A stretch of 11,830 nucleotides of DNA from a virus. The stretch lies in the IMG/VR virus record IMGVR_UViG_3300006057_000043; one strand, written 5' to 3'. Numbering within the stretch: position 1 is the first letter of the stretch; every line of letters starts with the position of its first letter. Below, piece by piece: positions 522 through 4,502 of this stretch. The notes below the pieces were generated by a model that did no database searches, was not told where the DNA came from, and saw nothing but the letters and a program-made list of their open reading frames with translations. Position numbers and translations under genes: made by a program.

Positions 522-675
522 TTGGTGGGCCGGGGAGGCAATGATCCTCCCATCCGTGAGGGGGAAACCGCAGCGGCTCGCTTCGGGTTCTAGACCCCTC
601 AGCGACCGAAGCCAGCTCCTTCCCTTTGTCAGCTACCCGTCGGTAGCCTGCGCTCTACCCTTGAGCTACGGCCCT
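522..675 (-). ncRNA. atypical ~155-nt tRNA-like RNA (tRNA-type ends, long internal insertion)
   Basis: 5' GGGCCGU with D-arm GCUC-AAGGGUA-GAGC. 3' end is T-arm GGGAGG-AUCAUUG-CCUCCC, then CGGCCC-A-CCA, which pairs with the 5' strand. About 95 nt of hairpin-rich sequence replaces a normal anticodon/variable region. Confidence 0.3.
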
Positions 676-708
676 TGGCCCCCGGTCGAGATTTGACCCC
701 GACCGGGG
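676..708 (-). ncRNA. tRNA acceptor/T-arm minihelix H1 (11-bp stem, loop GUCAAAU, 3' GCCA)
   Basis: RNA CCCCGGUCGGG GUCAAAU CUCGACCGGGG GCCA. 11 contiguous pairs, a 7-nt T-loop-like loop, then discriminator+CCA. It abuts the neighbouring elements with no spacer. Confidence 0.5.
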
Positions 709-855
709 ATGGTCCACACGCAAGGGGTTGAACCCCGGCCCACGGTACCCCCCTCCTGGCGCTTGCAATCGCCATCGGGCTTCTTCCGTGGGTGTCACCT
801 CCACTCCACGTCCCCGGCGTCGACACCGGAGGGCTTATGTGGCTGACCATGTGGT

Positions 856-889
856 TGGTGGCCGGCCAGGCTTTGACACCTGACCGACC
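856..889 (-). ncRNA. tRNA-like minihelix H2 (11-bp stem, loop UGUCAAAG, 3' ACCA)
   Basis: RNA GGUCGGUCAGG UGUCAAAG CCUGGCCGGCC ACCA. 11 bp including two G-U pairs. Immediately 3' of the CUA tRNA. Confidence 0.5.
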
Positions 890-890
890 A

Positions 891-966
891 TGGCGCCCCT
901 CGTGGGACTTGAACCCACAACCAAGACTTTTAGGGAGTCCTGCTCTGCCAGTTGAGCTAGAGGAGC
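891..966 (-). tRNA. tRNA, anticodon CUA (amber/UAG-reading; putative suppressor), CCA encoded
   Basis: 76-nt cloverleaf: acceptor GCUCCUC/GAGGGGC, D-arm GCUC-AACUGGCA-GAGC, anticodon arm GGACU-CCCUAAA-AGUCU, T-arm GUGGG-UUCAAGU-CCCAC, G73, CCA. Positions 34-36 are CUA. Position 33 is C rather than the usual U. Confidence 0.6.
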
Positions 967-967
967 T

Positions 968-1001
968 TGGTCGCCGGCCAGGATTTGACCCCTGACCGGC
1001 G
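968..1001 (-). ncRNA. tRNA-like minihelix H3 (11-bp stem, loop GGUCAAAU, 3' ACCA)
   Basis: RNA CGCCGGUCAGG GGUCAAAU CCUGGCCGGCG ACCA. Confidence 0.5.
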
Positions 1002-1002
1002 T

Positions 1003-1036
1003 TGGTGCCGGGGCAGGCTTTGACTCCTACCCCAGC
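1003..1036 (-). ncRNA. tRNA-like minihelix H4 (11-bp stem, loop AGUCAAAG, 3' ACCA)
   Basis: RNA GCUGGGGUAGG AGUCAAAG CCUGCCCCGGC ACCA. Confidence 0.5.
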
Positions 1037-1037
1037 A

Positions 1038-1109
1038 TGGCTCCCCTGGCAAGTCGTGACCTTGCGTCTCCTCACTGATGTGAGGCGCTCTACTCTGAGC
1101 TACAGGGGA
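1038..1109 (-). ncRNA. degenerate tRNA-like RNA (72 nt, U1-A72, G73-CCA, non-canonical anticodon and T loops)
   Basis: Acceptor UCCCCUG/CAGGGGA. D-arm GCUC-AGAGUA-GAGC. Anticodon-position hairpin CCUCAC-AUCA-GUGAGG (4-nt loop). T-position arm GCAAG-GUCACGA-CUUGC. Ends G-CCA. Confidence 0.35.
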
Positions 1110-1149
1110 ATGGTGGGTGGCCCGTGCTTGCCCACGGACCACCCAGGAC

Positions 1150-1551
1150 TTACACCGCGACCCCCTTCCTGAGGATCGTCTCCCGCTCCCAGCGCGAGTC
1201 GCTGGTGTCCCGAAGGGCGAGGGGGAGGGTGTCGAGCGCAGCGCCGATGTCGTCGTCGGCGAACAGGGCGATGGCAGTCAGCTCATCACCGATGTCGGGC
1301 TCGTAGAACGGGGTGACTGGAAGCCCCTGGCCGGCGGCGTAGTCGAAGAACTGCCGAAGCTGCTCTTCGTTCTCCACGGCGAGGAGGACCAGCGAGTTCG
1401 AGGCGGCTTCCCACTCTCGGACCATGTGTTGCTGTTCACTGGCAAACGCGATGCCAGCGTGGGTGGCCATGGTGGCCTGGTACCCAGGGCTCAGATCCTG
1501 ACGGGTCAGAACGTAGAGCTTGGGTCGGTGAGTCTAGGTGAACGTTTCCAT
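1150..1551 (-). CDS. PTH2-like (peptidyl-tRNA hydrolase 2 / Pth2-fold) protein; in-frame TAG at 1534-1536 (codon 6)
   Basis: From ATG 1551 the frame reads METFT*THRPKLYVLTRQDLSPGYQATMATHAGIAFASEQQHMVREWEAASNSLVLLAVENEEQLRQ... This is collinear with the Pth2 motifs KMVIVVRxDL...AAQxxHAA...WE...KVVVKV.DEE.L. The stretch KLYVLTRQDL lies between the TAG and the next ATG (1470), so it is translated only if the TAG is read through. The promoter at 1596-1624 places the transcription start upstream of ATG 1551. Terminates with TAA. Confidence 0.45.
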
Positions 1552-2625: not shown

Positions 2626-2699
2626 TGGCTCCCCCGCCTCGATTCGAACAAGGTCTCTGAGCTTCAAAGGCTCCGGTGCTGCCGTTACACCACAGGGGA
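2626..2699 (-). tRNA. tRNA-Gln (anticodon UUG), CCA encoded
   Basis: U1-A72, G73. Anticodon loop CUUUGAA. T-arm CCUUG-UUCGAAU-CGAGG. Confidence 0.6.
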
Positions 2700-2725
2700 C
2701 TGGCACCGGAGGTAGGGCTCCGGTA

Positions 2726-2800
2726 TGGCTCTCCCGCAGGGACTCGAACCCCGAACTAGCGGTTAACAGCCGCTCGCGTTTCCAATTACGCCACAAGAGA
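2726..2800 (-). tRNA. tRNA-Asn (anticodon GUU), CCA encoded
   Basis: Anticodon arm AGCGG-CUGUUAA-CCGCU. T-arm CGGGG-UUCGAGU-CCCUG. Confidence 0.6.
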
Positions 2801-2815
2801 ATGTGTATTTCTGCG

Positions 2816-2899
2816 TGTCCACGGGGGGACTTGAACCCCCAAGCTCTTTCGAGCACCAGCCCCTCAAGCTGGCGTGTTTACCAATTTCACCACATGGAC
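2816..2899 (-). tRNA. tRNA-Leu (anticodon GAG), class II
   Basis: Anticodon arm CCAGC-UUGAGGG-GCUGG. Long variable hairpin GCUC-GAAA-GAGC. T-arm GGGGG-UUCAAGU-CCCCC. A73. No CCA. Confidence 0.6.
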
Positions 2900-2900
2900 T

Positions 2901-2985
2901 TGGTCTCGGAGGCGGGACTTGAACCCGCATGACTTTCGTCGGCCGGGTTTGAACCGGCTGCGTCTACCGTTTTCACCACTCCGAG
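2901..2985 (-). tRNA. tRNA-Leu (anticodon CAA), class II, CCA encoded
   Basis: Acceptor CUCGGAG/CUCCGAG. Anticodon arm GCCGG-UUCAAAC-CCGGC. Long variable arm. T-arm GCGGG-UUCAAGU-CCCGC. Confidence 0.6.
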
Positions 2986-2986
2986 T

Positions 2987-3073
2987 TGGTGGGCCAGGAG
3001 GGAGTTGAACCCTCACGACATTTCTGCCGGCGGCTTCTGAGGCCGCTGCGTCTACCAGTTTCACCACTGGCCC
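2987..3073 (-). tRNA. tRNA-Leu (anticodon CAG), class II, CCA encoded
   Basis: Acceptor GGGCCAG/CUGGCCC. Anticodon arm GCGGC-CUCAGAA-GCCGC. Long variable arm. T-arm GAGGG-UUCAACU-CCCUC. Confidence 0.6.
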
Positions 3074-3074
3074 A

Positions 3075-3151
3075 TGGTCCCCGCCCTCGGATTCGAACCG
3101 AGAACCTCACAGACCTGAGCCGTGCGCCTCTGCCAGTTGGGCTAAGCGGGG
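3075..3151 (-). tRNA. tRNA, anticodon CAG by fold, but class I (short variable arm); identity uncertain
   Basis: Acceptor CCCCGCU/GGCGGGG. Anticodon arm CACGG-CUCAGGU-CUGUG. T-arm CUCGG-UUCGAAU-CCGAG. A73-CCA. A Leu anticodon on a class-I body is unusual. Confidence 0.45.
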
Positions 3152-3303
3152 AGGATGCTTGAAGCCACTCCCCGGCGCCCGTCACTGCGCCCGCTAGGGG
3201 CTACAGATTGACCGGGCCGCGTTGGAGCGGCAGGCTAAGTAGCAATCGGATCGAGAACGATCCCTGCGACTGGTTGGAGGCGGTCTTGCGCTGCATGGAT
3301 GGA

Positions 3304-3332
3304 ACCCTACCTGGTCCAGGACGCCATGTCAA
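3304..3332 (-). promoter_or_regulatory. sigma-A-type promoter TTGACA-N17-TAGGGT for the 6-tRNA array
   Basis: Minus strand reads TTGACA TGGCGTCCTGGACCAGG TAGGGT. It is about 145 nt upstream of the first tRNA 5' end. Its -35 context (TTGACATGGC) matches the promoter of the other tRNA array. Confidence 0.5.
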
Positions 3333-3360
3333 GTCTTTTCCCAAGATTCTCGCTGGCCGA

Positions 3361-3618
3361 CTAGCGGCTGGCATCCATCTCCACGAAAAAGGGAGGCTCC
3401 TCGGTGGCTCGCCTAGCCAACACCTGAGTGCCCATCTCGAAGATGTCGCCGCAAGTGGGGCATTTGAGGTGGTGGGCGAAGTAACCGTCGAAGTGGCAAT
3501 GCTGGCCGCACGGGCACCAGAAGTCGATGCAGAGATTAGTCCCCTTCCATTGAATGAACATCTCAGCATCGGTACCGGGGACGGCCGTGAAGGGAAACTC
3601 TTGGTTCTTGCCGGCCAT
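3361..3618 (-). CDS. small Zn-ribbon protein (85 aa)
   Basis: CPCGQHCH...CPTCG motif. AGGAGG Shine-Dalgarno inside the end of the upstream gene. The ATG is the codon immediately after the upstream TAG (TAG-ATG, in frame). Ends in TAG. Confidence 0.55.
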   Translation of the reverse strand: MAGKNQEFPFTAVPGTDAEMFIQWKGTNLCIDFWCPCGQHCHFDGYFAHHLKCPTCGDIFEMGTQVLARRATEEPPFFVEMDASR

Positions 3619-3993
3619 CTAGGCCTCCTGGGGGTTGAGCAGGACGGCGCCGCAGAGGGCGGACAGTTCCTCGATGCCGACGCGCCTGGTGTTGTAGTAG
3701 GGCGACAGGGCGGCCATCATGCGGTCGCCGGCCGGGGCGTTGATCGTGTGGACCATGATCTGGCCGACCCAGTAGGGGTTCTCGTGGTAGGCCGTTTCCT
3801 CCAGCCAATTCACGATGGGCTCGATCGTGTCGTCATCCCCGAGGTCGTGGTCGAGCCACAGCTCGTCGAGGCGCAGGCCGGCGGAGCGCAACACGACCAT
3901 CAACTGCTCGCCGAACCAAGAGGTCCGGGCGTGGTTGACCTCACCCTCTAGCTTGAGGGTCCGCTCATCGTCGATGACCAGGATGCGCTTCAT
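3619..3993 (-). CDS. receiver-like (CheY-fold) domain protein, CPR-like (cyclic-phosphate-processing receiver family)
   Basis: MKRILVIDDERTL...LWLDHDLGDDDT...VNWLEE...VHTINAPAGDRM. Matches the ILxDDER / LDHDLG / WL..E / HSxNPxGR pattern of the phage-borne, RNA-repair-associated receiver family. Leaderless promoter. Ends in TAG. Confidence 0.55.
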   Translation of the reverse strand: MKRILVIDDERTLKLEGEVNHARTSWFGEQLMVVLRSAGLRLDELWLDHDLGDDDTIEPIVNWLEETAYHENPYWVGQIMVHTINAPAGDRMMAALSPYYNTRRVGIEELSALCGAVLLNPQEA

Positions 3994-3999
3994 CCAGCA

Positions 4000-4028
4000 T
4001 GTGTAGCACGGGCAGCCACGAACTGCAA
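4000..4028 (-). promoter_or_regulatory. sigma-A-type promoter TTGCAG-N17-TACACA, 6 nt before the ATG at 3993
   Basis: Minus strand reads TTGCAG TTCGTGGCTGCCCGTGC TACACA TGCTGG ATG. Confidence 0.45.
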
Positions 4029-4030
4029 GT

Positions 4031-4107
4031 TGGCATCCCGTCTAGGCTTCGAACCCAGAAACTCTAGCGTCAGAGGCTAGCGACTTTACCAGTTTATCTA
4101 ACGGGAT
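4031..4107 (-). tRNA. tRNA-Gln-like (anticodon CUG), A1-U72, G73-CCA
   Basis: Anticodon arm CUAGC-CUCUGAC-GCUAG. T-arm CUGGG-UUCGAAG-CCUAG. Confidence 0.55.
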
Positions 4108-4108
4108 A

Positions 4109-4183
4109 TGGCTCAGGGGGAAGGGTTCGAACCTCCGACGGCAGGGTCAGAACCTGCTGTGTTACCGACTACACTACCCCTGA
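4109..4183 (-). tRNA. tRNA-Gln (anticodon CUG), U1-A72, G73-CCA
   Basis: D-arm GUGU-AGUCGGUA-ACAC. Anticodon arm GCAGG-UUCUGAC-CCUGC. T-arm GGAGG-UUCGAAC-CCUUC. Confidence 0.6.
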
Positions 4184-4319
4184 ATGTGCCGCCAACTTCT
4201 GCCAGTAACCCCTTGCGGTGTTCAAGAACCCGGCCGTTGGGGCGACGCTCCTCAAACATGCCCCCTTCCCAGGGGACTTCAACATAGCTCCAGTATCTAG
4301 TCGTGGGGCCATGCTACAG

Positions 4320-4394
4320 CAGGGGTGCCAGGAATCGAACCTGGTCGTGTATCAAGAGTTTTGGAGACTCTCCGGCTACCTCAGCCTCACCCCT
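4320..4394 (-). tRNA. tRNA-Trp (anticodon CCA)
   Basis: Acceptor AGGGGUG/CACCCCU. Anticodon arm AGAGU-CUCCAAA-ACUCU. T-arm CCAGG-UUCGAUU-CCUGG. G73. No CCA. Atypically long variable segment. Confidence 0.5.
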
Positions 4395-4429
4395 TCGGGT
4401 TACTGCTGGCAGCTCCGGCGTCTACTGTG

Positions 4430-4502
4430 TCGGGCGGGTGGGATTCGAACCCACGACCACTCGGTTCCGAGCCGAGTACGCTGACCGCTGCGCTACCGCC
4501 CG
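4430..4502 (-). tRNA. tRNA-Pro (anticodon CGG), C1-G72, A73
   Basis: Acceptor CGGGCGG/CCGCCCG. D-arm GCGC-AGCGGUCA-GCGU. Anticodon arm CUCGG-CUCGGAA-CCGAG. T-arm GUGGG-UUCGAAU-CCCAC. C1-G72 with A73 is the bacterial proline identity signature. Confidence 0.65.

Follow-up and report, generated by a model that had tools for sequence, protein, structure and literature searches.

The 11,830-nucleotide stretch of viral DNA analysed here (the window; IMG/VR record IMGVR_UViG_3300006057_000043) carries on its minus strand a chain of five hairpins, one tRNA with anticodon CUA and three non-decoding tRNA-like units. Each hairpin has an 11-bp stem, a loop of 7-8 nt (consensus NGUCAAAN) and an RCCA tail, and the same family has members in two Mycobacterium phages, Myrna and Phabba, and in about six GC-rich lineages of uncultured phages. 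We propose that the five hairpins are genes for tRNA-derived 'minihelix' RNAs of about 34 nt, each of which would consist of an acceptor-arm-like helix of 11 pairs and a variable twelfth layer, the consensus loop, and an encoded, single-stranded RCCA end. On the reading that we prefer, the minihelices would be RNase P substrates that punctuate the transcript, and their excision would yield stable acceptor-arm mimics. We judge this interpretation, drawn from the sequence and its conservation, to be about evenly poised between right and wrong.

Layout of the array

A sequence-only reading had recognised four of the hairpins (H1-H4). All four are real by direct reading of the sequence and by a pattern scan, all lie on the minus strand, which is the strand of every tRNA in the window, and the architecture described for them is indeed shared across copies. 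A fifth hairpin, H5, had been missed (1144..1111), and it lies on the same strand. The reading had also placed the hairpins against their neighbours with spacers of 0-1 nt; the units do abut, but there are no 0-nt spacers, and each one read from the sequence is exactly 1 nt (U or A). These spacers, and the lack of any promoter- or terminator-like site in positions 1-2200, support the proposed co-transcription of the minihelices with the flanking tRNA and tRNA-likes.

Table 1. The PTH2-like gene and the units of the array, in minus-strand order
Feature	Coordinates (strand)	Sequence (5' arm / loop / 3' arm / tail) or elements	Energy (kcal/mol)	z	Covariance model (bits)	Remarks
PTH2-type peptidyl-tRNA hydrolase gene	1150..1551 (-)	ATG 1551..1549; in-frame amber TAG 1536..1534 (codon 6); stop TAA 1152..1150				
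Minihelix H5	1111..1144 (-)	GGGUGGUCCGU / GGGCAAGC / ACGGGCCACCC / ACCA	-26.7	-4.55	39.9	U at -1
tRNA-like A	1038..1109 (-)	7-bp acceptor stem; D arm; anticodon arm with 4-nt loop AUCA; T arm loop GUCACGA; GCCA tail				72 nt
Minihelix H4	1003..1036 (-)	GCUGGGGUAGG / AGUCAAAG / CCUGCCCCGGC / ACCA	-23.2	-4.59	46.5	
Minihelix H3	968..1001 (-)	CGCCGGUCAGG / GGUCAAAU / CCUGGCCGGCG / ACCA			45.6	ends 1 nt before suppressor tRNA
Amber-suppressor tRNA	891..966 (-)	anticodon CUA; CCA encoded				ARAGORN call; Rfam tRNA 56.8 bits
Minihelix H2	856..889 (-)	GGUCGGUCAGG / UGUCAAAG / CCUGGCCGGCC / ACCA	-24.2	-5.83	49	starts 1 nt after suppressor tRNA
Long tRNA-like B	710..854 (-)	acceptor stem CCACAUG/CGUGUGG; large internal insertions; ACCA end				145 nt
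Minihelix H1	676..708 (-)	CCCCGGUCGGG / GUCAAAU / CUCGACCGGGG / GCCA	-24.5	-4.4	21 (E = 0.035-0.18)	33 nt; 7-nt loop
Long tRNA-like C	523..674 (-)	acceptor GGGCCG/CGGCCC; D arm GCUC-AAGGGUA-GAGC; T arm GGGAGG-AUCAUUG-CCUCCC; ACCA tail				152 nt

The tRNA-CUA is the sole decoding-competent tRNA of the array. tRNA-like A is without an anticodon because its anticodon arm is capped by the 4-nt loop, and it is called by neither ARAGORN nor Rfam; tRNA-like B matches no Rfam family. Three open reading frames that cross the array (629-1075, 792-995 and 957-1142) have no Pfam match, and a protein-coding reading of them was rejected.

An array of this kind is far above the chance level. A scan for stems of at least 9 bp followed by NCCA returned the five distinct hairpins plus two nested sub-hits, all on one strand and within 470 nt, and just one further match in the whole window. 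Mononucleotide shuffles of the window gave a mean of 0.5 matches and a maximum of 3.

Structure and strand of the minihelices

Each minihelix folds at -23 to -27 kcal/mol with a z-score of -4.4 to -5.8, whereas the opposite strand, with A.C mismatches in place of the G.U pairs, reaches just -11 to -19 kcal/mol. The tRNA sense is thus the only one in which the hairpins fold. When the complete array of 661 nt is folded, the minimum-energy structure (z = -6.4) retains all five. At the minihelix coordinates, ARAGORN and the Rfam tRNA model (RF00005) make no tRNA call even at E <= 10. These are single helices of 33-34 nt without a cloverleaf, which excludes canonical tRNAs, and no Rfam family matches them, YrlA included.

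The likeness of the loop to a T-loop, noted earlier from its GUCAAA motif, is approximate. The loop is one of 8 nt, or of 6 nt plus a variable closing pair (7 nt in H1), and a canonical 7-nt T-loop closed by G53-C61 does not fit the covarying register. When the 3' partner is moved by the 1-3 columns that such a T-loop calls for, pairing drops from 100% to 35-55%, and the canonical register was rejected. Some members have U.G, G.U or G-C as the twelfth layer of the helix, while others have G.G, A.G or A.C. In the window the helix is followed by a single-stranded discriminator and CCA, the discriminator being A in four copies and G in H1. An RCCA tail is present in every member of the family, and it follows 14 of the 16 GTCAAA-loop hairpins found by a scan that was blind to the tail. 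G occupies position +1 in 18 of 20 members, and U occupies position -1 in 11 of 18.

These properties make it scarcely credible that the hairpins are elements acting at the level of DNA or transcription, whether as protein-binding palindromes, intrinsic terminators or promoters that use the TTGAC of the plus-strand loop. Although the plus-strand loops read (C/A)TTTGAC, which is -35-like, and inverted repeats can bind dimeric proteins, the arm sequences differ between copies, the G.U pairs are A.C mismatches in a cruciform as well as on the other strand, and the orientation and CCA tail always track the tRNA strand. No T-tract follows the hairpins. A plus-strand promoter or an intrinsic terminator was rejected, given that positions 1-2200 hold no such site and that the ACCA tails run into the next structured unit.

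Recurrence, covariation and selection

A loop-independent scan (hairpin plus NCCA) recovered Myrna M1 and M2, L100a-c and L104a. These Myrna, L100 and L104 finds sit downstream of PTH2-like genes with only 36-48% identity to that of the window. There are five copies per array in the window, three in L100 and two in Myrna, and L074 has a lone copy between two protein-coding genes (6393-6426).

The family is rare, and most PTH2-like loci, or phages with PTH2 and tRNA-CUA, are without a minihelix. A blastn search of the array against 50,697 phage records gave no match, exact and near-exact H2/H3 patterns gave none or chance matches in IMG/VR, and single-protein searches of IMG/VR with two flanking ORFs gave no match. 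An exact-protein look-up returned only two short contigs, which are identical to the window. Relatives of the MVP-like protein in the AT-rich huge phages LR756500 and LR756501 have no minihelices or tRNAs nearby, and AT-rich PTH2-like loci yielded no minihelix by covariance model or hairpin scan. Among the first 120 pattern matches listed from bacterial and archaeal genomes, none exceeds 10 paired positions out of 11. The lack of a CCA tail excludes from the family a hairpin of a Mesorhizobium phage that has the loop GGUUGAAG.

The minihelix family is not in Rfam, GenBank annotation or the literature searched, where nothing relevant on phage minihelices was found. Current annotation misses or misnames these RNAs: Myrna gene 85, annotated as 'tRNA-Ser', joins half a minihelix to a D-armless tRNA-like. 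The Phabba annotation implies that Myrna M1 and the D-armless unit form one composite tRNA, a candidate that we rejected on finding that the equivalent pairing is absent in L015.

Covariation was assessed in 20 covariance-model matches from the window and nine other loci, a set ascertained on the basis of hairpins. All 20 are 100% paired, 10 of the 11 pairs change on both sides, and 20 cells of the alignment are G.U; no shuffle or slid register approaches the real alignment. Among 16-base pattern matches in IMG/VR, either 3-9 or all 11 of 11 positions pair, with none between. Stem sequences differ but compensate, as the sequence-only reading had noted from the window, and the covariation across phages supports the view that structure, not sequence, is under selection. 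Stem sequences vary while length, loop and ACCA are kept. Within the window, H2 and H3 are nonetheless close paralogues.

These data bear on whether the minihelices are decaying tRNA genes that lost their D and anticodon arms by internal deletion and are kept, without a function of their own, by their location in a tRNA operon. Such an origin has some appeal, given the range of truncated forms in the same interval of related phages, where D-armless and anticodon-armless tRNA-likes occur and C1 phages have bulged minihelices with a normal T-loop. Moreover, the position after the PTH2 stop is occupied by a minihelix in L160 and by a larger form in L154 and L104, all with the same acceptor stem (GUCCCGG/CCGGGGC). 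We nevertheless consider simple decay improbable. Every stem is perfectly paired and covaries as above, and the 34-nt length and ACCA are fixed across phages with PTH2-like proteins of only about 40-50% identity. Furthermore, CCA is encoded in every minihelix but in only 2 of the 44 canonical tRNA genes counted in the minihelix loci outside the window (Myrna, L100, L104, L107, L154, L160 and L173). Perfect pairing, covariation, fixed length and tail, and retained CCA together indicate purifying selection.

Synteny with a PTH2-like gene and a suppressor tRNA

In minus-strand order, the PTH2-like gene comes first in the putative transcription unit to which the minihelices belong. Its translation starts METFT*THRPKLYVLTRQDLSPG, and the part after the TAG (1153-1533) scores 26.1 bits against Pfam PTH2 (cut-off 23; profile positions 2-78), compared with only 19.6 bits for the ORF from ATG 1470. 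The family profile matches human Bit1/PTH2 (1q7s, E = 9e-10) and archaeal PTH2 structures.

A conserved module emerges in which a PTH2-type gene with an in-frame UAG near its start is followed by minihelices and truncated tRNA-likes and then by an amber-suppressor tRNA. The first minihelix begins 5-8 nt past the PTH2-like stop codon in the window (5 nt, for H5), Myrna, L100, L107, L160 and L122. Four loci (the window, Myrna, L015 and L100) have a minihelix that stops 1 nt short of tRNA-CUA. In other lineages tRNA-CUA itself begins 1-40 nt after the PTH2-like stop. Of the two neighbouring genes to which the sequence-only reading had linked the hairpins, the PTH2-like one is borne out by this conserved synteny in several phage lineages, whereas the link to the cREC ('CPR-like') gene of the window was not found elsewhere. 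The Myrna neighbourhood holds a CCA-adding enzyme, an RNA ligase, a second PTH and an RF2-like gene.

This arrangement raises the question of whether the minihelices are aminoacylated mini-tRNAs, or ligands of the ribosome or its factors, that work with the amber-gated hydrolase and the suppressor tRNA, for example as peptidyl acceptors or PTH2 substrates in the rescue of ribosomes stalled by readthrough. Synteny with both partners is strict wherever the flanks are known, except in L074, and synthetases, EF-Tu, the peptidyl-transferase centre and Pth all make use of the R73-CCA end of a tRNA, as established by minihelix biochemistry. However, there is no conserved identity set: G3.U70 is absent, the first three pairs vary, and the stems fit no isoacceptor, so that mimicry of a particular isoacceptor acceptor stem or synthetase identity set was rejected on stem comparison. 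The nearest natural analogues, the t-elements of plant mitochondria, are CCA-tailed and yet not aminoacylated (bioRxiv 10.1101/2024.09.09.612099). We regard aminoacylated or ribosome-directed mini-tRNAs as distinctly unlikely.

Comparison with known RNAs

The phage elements resemble synthetic acceptor/T-psi-C minihelices in their coaxial helix of about 12 layers, loop cap, single-stranded N73-CCA and length of 34-35 nt. The synthetic forms are model substrates of RNase P, the CCA-adding enzyme, EF-Tu and some synthetases. In contrast, the phage elements are natural, genome-encoded and arrayed in an operon, their helix has 11 Watson-Crick or G.U pairs and a variable twelfth layer, paired in some members, where the biochemical definition has a continuous 12 bp (a 7-bp acceptor stem plus a 5-bp T stem), and their loop is the 8-nt consensus, with a register that excludes G53-C61 closure, rather than a 7-nt UUCRANY.

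Several natural RNAs share individual features. Signals of the t-element and mascRNA type abut an mRNA or lncRNA, and cleavage by RNase P or RNase Z sets the end of that RNA and frees a small CCA-ended one (PMC1920247; bioRxiv 10.1101/2024.09.09.612099). H5 and its counterparts resemble them in position, at a putative mRNA end just past the PTH2-like stop. Whereas t-elements have a cloverleaf-like fold and receive CCA post-transcriptionally, the phage elements are bare hairpins with encoded CCA that also occur in tandem and between tRNAs. Precursor 4.5S/SRP RNA, the C4 antisense RNA of P1 and P7 and the tRNA-like domain of pre-tmRNA share U(-1)/G(+1), a long helix and 3' RCCA with no full cloverleaf (PMC10731613), and C4 RNA is phage-encoded too. 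However, these show no sequence or covariance-model similarity to the minihelices, and they carry functional bodies, while a minihelix consists of the hairpin alone.

Theta (minimal HDV-like) ribozymes adjoin phage tRNAs, are enriched at suppressor tRNAs and have been proposed to process tRNA ends (bioRxiv 10.1101/2023.06.13.544163). They share with the minihelices the character of a small structured RNA directly beside phage suppressor tRNAs, but they self-cleave and lie 3' of the tRNA, whereas the minihelices, which would rely on RNase P, show no ribozyme fold and flank the tRNA on either side.

Non-decoding tRNA mimics are known from the T4 tRNA cluster, namely the species 1 and species 2 RNAs. 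YrlA and the bacterial Y RNAs are also non-decoding tRNA mimics, and RNase P cleaves the YrlA of M. smegmatis, to which CCA is added (PMC4201824). Unlike the minihelices, YrlA is at least 100 nt long, has a Ro-binding helix and lies next to rsr. The best match to the YrlA model (RF02553) scores 15.8 bits (E = 3.4) against a gathering score of 69; it is the sole database match of tRNA-like C and is at chance level. No TROVE/Ro gene was found among the ten largest window ORFs scanned.

Proposed RNase P processing and possible roles of the released RNAs

On our preferred reading, a single minus-strand precursor would begin with the PTH2-like mRNA and continue through H5 and all further units to tRNA-like C, in the order of Table 1. 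RNase P would cleave each unit at its 5' end and so leave the one upstream as ...CCA plus 1 nt, and a 3' exonuclease would remove the extra nucleotide. The cut at H5 would fix the 3' end of the PTH2-like mRNA 5 nt past its stop codon, and the minihelices would ensure that the odd tRNA-likes and the suppressor tRNA end precisely in CCA. Once released, they would be very stable, non-decoding mimics of the acceptor arm.

Bacterial RNase P recognises a stem of 12 nt with its loop, together with a 3' RCCA that pairs with L15, and it prefers U(-1)/G(+1) (PMC10731613). The units carry this set, with a loop-capped helix of about 12 layers, 3' RCCA, G at +1 and, in most cases, U at -1. The placement of minihelices just past the PTH2-like stop, 1 nt ahead of tRNA-CUA and, in L074, alone between two protein-coding genes is consistent with punctuation. 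However, pairing of the leader with RCCA is listed as an anti-determinant (PMC10731613), and the ability of the minihelix U(-1) to pair with A73 counts against the RNase P reading. Pure punctuation also leaves the tandem H4-H3 and the five copies unexplained, because the neighbouring tRNA-likes are themselves potential RNase P substrates, and the rarity of the family likewise counts against the reading. We know of no need of RNase P for the GUCAAA loop sequence, and another partner may therefore read the conserved loop.

Such a partner is central to the proposal that the released CCA-ended mimics, abundant on this view, serve to sponge up or distract a protein which recognises or attacks the 3' ends of tRNAs, with processing only delivering them. 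Possible targets are host nucleotidyltransferase toxins of the MenT/AbiEii type, nucleases that trim CCA or cut the acceptor stem, tRNA-acetylating toxins, and the phage's own PTH2-like or CCA-adding enzymes; mycobacterial MenT toxins modify tRNA acceptor ends. Decoys would account for several copies per array, a tandem pair without obvious processing use, and conservation of the NGUCAAAN loop and A73-CCA tail beyond known RNase P needs. The minihelices always lie within a tRNA-repair or translation-rescue neighbourhood, such as the PTH2-like and cREC genes of the window or the Myrna genes named above, and the accompanying tRNA-likes are also without a usable anticodon, yet their CCA ends are kept. 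We rate the proposal as somewhat unlikely all the same: there is no candidate partner to point to, the acceptor stems mimic no single tRNA isoacceptor, and most phages with the PTH2/tRNA-CUA module have no family member.

Among the roles that the sequence-only reading had put forward, processing punctuation gains the most indirect support from the comparative data, in which a minihelix or, in other lineages, a tRNA follows the PTH2-like stop. The minihelices may possibly act as acceptor-end decoys or mini-substrates, whereas the lack of an anticodon arm rules them out as decoys for anticodon nucleases.

Implications

A broader interpretation, speculative and in our view rather unlikely, is that the minihelices and the anticodon-less tRNA-likes are acceptor-arm decoys or effectors in a new circuit for translational take-over. 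In this circuit, the PTH2-type hydrolase would be made only when the phage amber-suppressor tRNA, cut from the same transcript, reads the conserved UAG near the start of the gene. The CCA-ended mini-RNAs would titrate or engage a factor acting at tRNA 3' ends, such as a host CCA-modifying or CCA-trimming toxin, RNase P, the CCA-adding enzyme or the ribosome.

For decades, acceptor/T-arm minihelices have been known as constructs made in the laboratory and as a hypothetical ancestor of tRNA. A natural, conserved family of CCA-encoded minihelix genes would show this minimal form in use in present-day biology. As Myrna infects M. smegmatis, it offers a tractable way to find the tRNA-binding machines with which a bare acceptor arm interacts in vivo. 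The minihelices also mark a conserved phage module of amber-gated PTH2 gene, suppressor tRNA and truncated tRNA-likes, one that ties together stop-codon suppression, peptidyl-tRNA hydrolysis and tRNA mimicry and that bears on how large phages may rewire or protect host translation.

Organization of the minihelix array

The tRNA genes of the window lie without exception on the minus strand, and from 1551 to 523, read in the sense of that strand, the units listed in the table form a single unbroken chain. This chain opens with a gene for a PTH2-type peptidyl-tRNA hydrolase (PTH2-like), and every RNA unit in it has RCCA as its 3' end and is set off from the next by exactly 1 nt. Five of these units (H1 to H5) are minihelices, hairpins of ~34 nt with an 11-bp stem, a 7-8-nt loop and an RCCA tail. 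Only the amber-suppressor tRNA with anticodon CUA (tRNA-CUA) is capable of decoding. The three tRNA-like units are non-decoding, RCCA-ended and without a match to any Rfam family: unit A folds as a cloverleaf of 72 nt in which a 4-nt loop replaces the anticodon loop, and units B and C (145 and 152 nt) carry large insertions. No site resembling a promoter or a terminator breaks the array region, and ORFs overlapping the array match no known family.

Units of the PTH2-like/minihelix array, in minus-strand order
Unit	Coordinates	Strand	3' junction
PTH2-like ORF	1551..1150	minus	5-nt gap 3' of ORF
H5	1144..1111	minus	spacer U1110
tRNA-like A	1109..1038	minus	spacer U1037
H4	1036..1003	minus	spacer A1002
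H3	1001..968	minus	spacer A967
tRNA-CUA	966..891	minus	spacer U890
H2	889..856	minus	spacer A855
tRNA-like B	854..710	minus	spacer U709
H1	708..676	minus	spacer A675
tRNA-like C	674..523	minus	chain end

The sequence-only reading had described four hairpins, H1 to H4, all of them correctly, and had overlooked H5. A scan for NCCA preceded by a stem of 9 bp or more yields five hairpins on one strand within 470 nt, compared with a mean of 0.5 hits in shuffled windows. Each has a folding energy of -23 to -27 kcal/mol (z-scores -4.4 to -5.8). The complementary strand reaches only -11 to -19 kcal/mol, with two of the five no different from shuffles, because U.G pairs turn into C.A mismatches. When the whole 661-nt transcript is folded, the five hairpins all persist, as do the cloverleaf-like units (z = -6.4), and the hairpins therefore survive the check for alternative long-range pairing.

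Relatives in other phages

Nucleotide searches for relatives of the array failed, and the route to Mycobacterium phages of cluster C was provided by the flanking PTH2-like protein. The order in Myrna and Phabba is gp84 (PTH2-like), 4 nt, minihelix M1 (GUCGGGGGAGG-GGUCAAAG-CCUCCCCCGGC-ACCA), a 54-nt D-armless tRNA-like, minihelix M2 (GCCCCGGCUGG-GGUCAAAG-CCAGCCGGGGC-ACCA), 1 nt, and a tRNA whose anticodon loop, UUCUAAA, gives CUA. The same gene order is found on an IMG/VR contig of 51% GC (L015, the same contig as L107), which has a PTH2-like gene, a CCA-ended hairpin, the 54-nt D-armless tRNA-like, GGGAGAGAGGG-UGUCAAAG-CCCUCUCUCCC-ACCA and tRNA-CUA. The D-armless unit, ACCA-ended and placed between two minihelices, lies at 33432-33485 in Myrna (L008 8319-8372) and at 3960-4013 in L015.

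When 35 viral and 80 metagenomic loci with a PTH2-like gene were scanned and a covariance model of the family (R1) was applied, further members emerged at loci L100 (three copies), L104, L154, L160 and L173. Locus L108 has a longer variant, and L074 has two copies, one of them alone between protein genes. Across 50,697 deposited phage genomes, matches occur in Myrna and Phabba only, and M2 is unannotated in both deposits.

GenBank fuses half of M1 with the D-armless unit, a mis-call labelled 'tRNA-Ser' (Myrna gene 85) or 'tRNA-undetermined' (Phabba), and labels the CUA suppressor tRNA-Ser or tRNA-Arg(tct). In mycobacteriophages of cluster C1 the PTH gene is followed by a bulged acceptor/T-arm element of 40 nt (L009 8340-8381 in Alice; L121 3396-3437, GCCGGUCGGUCAGGAGGUUCGAGACCUCCCUCCGGCACCA, with a canonical UUCGAGA T-loop), an element that resembles a form midway between a tRNA and a clean minihelix.

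Evidence for selection on structure

That the stems compensate, as had been claimed from the four window copies, holds across phages: 10 of the 11 stem pairs are changed on both sides. A position shows as many as four types of pair, and 20 cells are wobbles. Pairing at all 11 positions is 100% in 12 hand-aligned members and in 20 model-aligned matches, a value that is partly built in, since the methods used to find members demanded pairing. No shuffle or slid register came near the observed pairing or covariation values. Several features are independent of the pairing requirement, namely the constant position (immediately past the stop codon of the PTH2-like gene and immediately 5' of tRNA-CUA), the constant length of 34 nt, the same loop in members found without use of loop sequence, and the bimodal distribution of pattern matches (3-9 or 11/11 pairs). 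Among the matches listed from cellular genomes (the first 120), none is fully paired.

A tail-blind scan found RCCA 3' of 14 of 16 GTCAAA-loop hairpins, and at minihelix-bearing loci outside the window (including L089, L100, L104, L154 and L173) every minihelix encodes CCA, as against 2 of the 44 ordinary tRNA genes. Of the 11 minus-strand tRNA genes in the window (2626-4502 and 891-966), 8 encode it. Myrna has its own tRNA nucleotidyltransferase, gp28.

The corresponding interval of related phages holds an assortment of truncated tRNA-likes, which clearly points to tRNA genes as the source of the minihelix family. Simple decay of such genes is argued against by the selection visible in the covariation and in the constant length, position and loop.

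Apparent amber gating of the PTH2-like gene

The PTH2 assignment is sound as judged by sequence profile, with matches to human and archaeal PTH2 structures (E = 9e-10 to 3e-6). In the window gene, codon 6 is an in-frame UAG (1534-1536, minus strand; METFT*THRPKLY...), and the ORF rises above the Pfam cut-off only if the residues from this TAG up to the next ATG are counted. We surveyed 100 evaluable non-identical homologues (loci L091-L203), whose nearest upstream in-frame stop is TAG in 79 and TGA or TAA in 21. In 51 of the 79, the stretch from the TAG to the conserved core contains no ATG, GTG or TTG, and a start codon is present 1-8 codons 5' of the TAG in 50 of these 51. With no later start, yet a start just before the TAG, hydrolase production appears to depend on amber suppression. 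An alternative is termination followed by reinitiation at a GUN or AUH codon 3' of the TAG.

A tRNA-CUA is found no more than 2 kb downstream in ~45 of 103 non-identical PTH2-like loci, many of which are truncated. This synteny is strong across phages of 25-72% GC, contigs of 200-500 kb among them (the window and L097-L203). Elsewhere in the window TAG serves as an ordinary stop codon, which rules out genome-wide recoding and makes the putative gating gene-specific. The base 3' of the conserved TAG is nearly always a purine. In the L105 lineage the in-frame TAG is absent and the suppressor is of the ochre type (UUA).

Iyer et al. regard PTH2 of jumbo phages as a ribosome-rescue enzyme and mention neither amber gating nor suppressor linkage (PMC7824862). 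We found no description of the PTH2-like/suppressor-tRNA linkage in the literature searched.

Other features of the window

An 865-aa protein (4714-7311, minus) has the shoulder and repeat domains of the major vault protein (MVP; Pfam E = 1.5e-25). Such a vault-like protein is unusual for a phage; here its gene, which has a TAG stop, has tRNA genes and a cREC_REC gene (3619-3993) for neighbours, and relatives ~41% identical to it are encoded by huge uncultured phages (462-735 kb). A 131-aa ORF (2147-2542, minus) also ends in TAG, in frame with a ferredoxin ORF (1874-2137) that starts three codons later, and readthrough by tRNA-CUA would fuse the two. Directly 3' of the array (492-520, minus), TTGACC (520-515) and TAAGGT (497-492) are separated by a 17-nt spacer, the latter 6 nt upstream of the ATG at 485 of a 157-aa cysteine-rich ORF (12-485). 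This pair could be the promoter of a leaderless mRNA; a consensus promoter scanner did not report it.

Possible roles of the minihelices

Bacterial RNase P recognizes a loop-capped helix of ~12 layers, RCCA at the 3' end, G(+1) and U(-1) (PMC10731613). The conserved features of the minihelices are all on this list: the ~12-layer helix, the loop, RCCA and G(+1), plus U(-1) in the majority of members. From these features we infer transcription and cleavage, and give roughly even chances that the array is an RNase P processing module. Cleavage at each 5' end would, given the 1-nt spacers, leave 1 nt beyond the CCA of the unit upstream. The cut at the first minihelix would end the PTH2-like mRNA 5-8 nt past its stop codon, and the last minihelix would supply the 5' side of the suppressor tRNA. 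In lineages that lack minihelices, the suppressor tRNA often occupies that post-stop place. Plant mitochondrial t-elements and mascRNA share the proposed processing logic.

Punctuation of this kind makes the tandem pair H4-H3 superfluous, as it does the five copies in a single array and a loop sequence that is kept though PTH2-like proteins share only 36-48% identity. These features suggest that the minihelix RNAs, once released, have an importance of their own, serving as decoys or ligands of a reader of tRNA 3' ends. We found no partner for them and no sign that they imitate a particular isoacceptor or identity set.

The minihelices match no Rfam family and are covered by no existing annotation, and our literature search for phage minihelices found no paper. 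As a kind of element, tRNA-like RNase P substrates and processing signals are already known. What is new is a bare, CCA-encoding hairpin that forms an array within an operon and is linked to a module of suppressor tRNA and apparently amber-gated PTH2.
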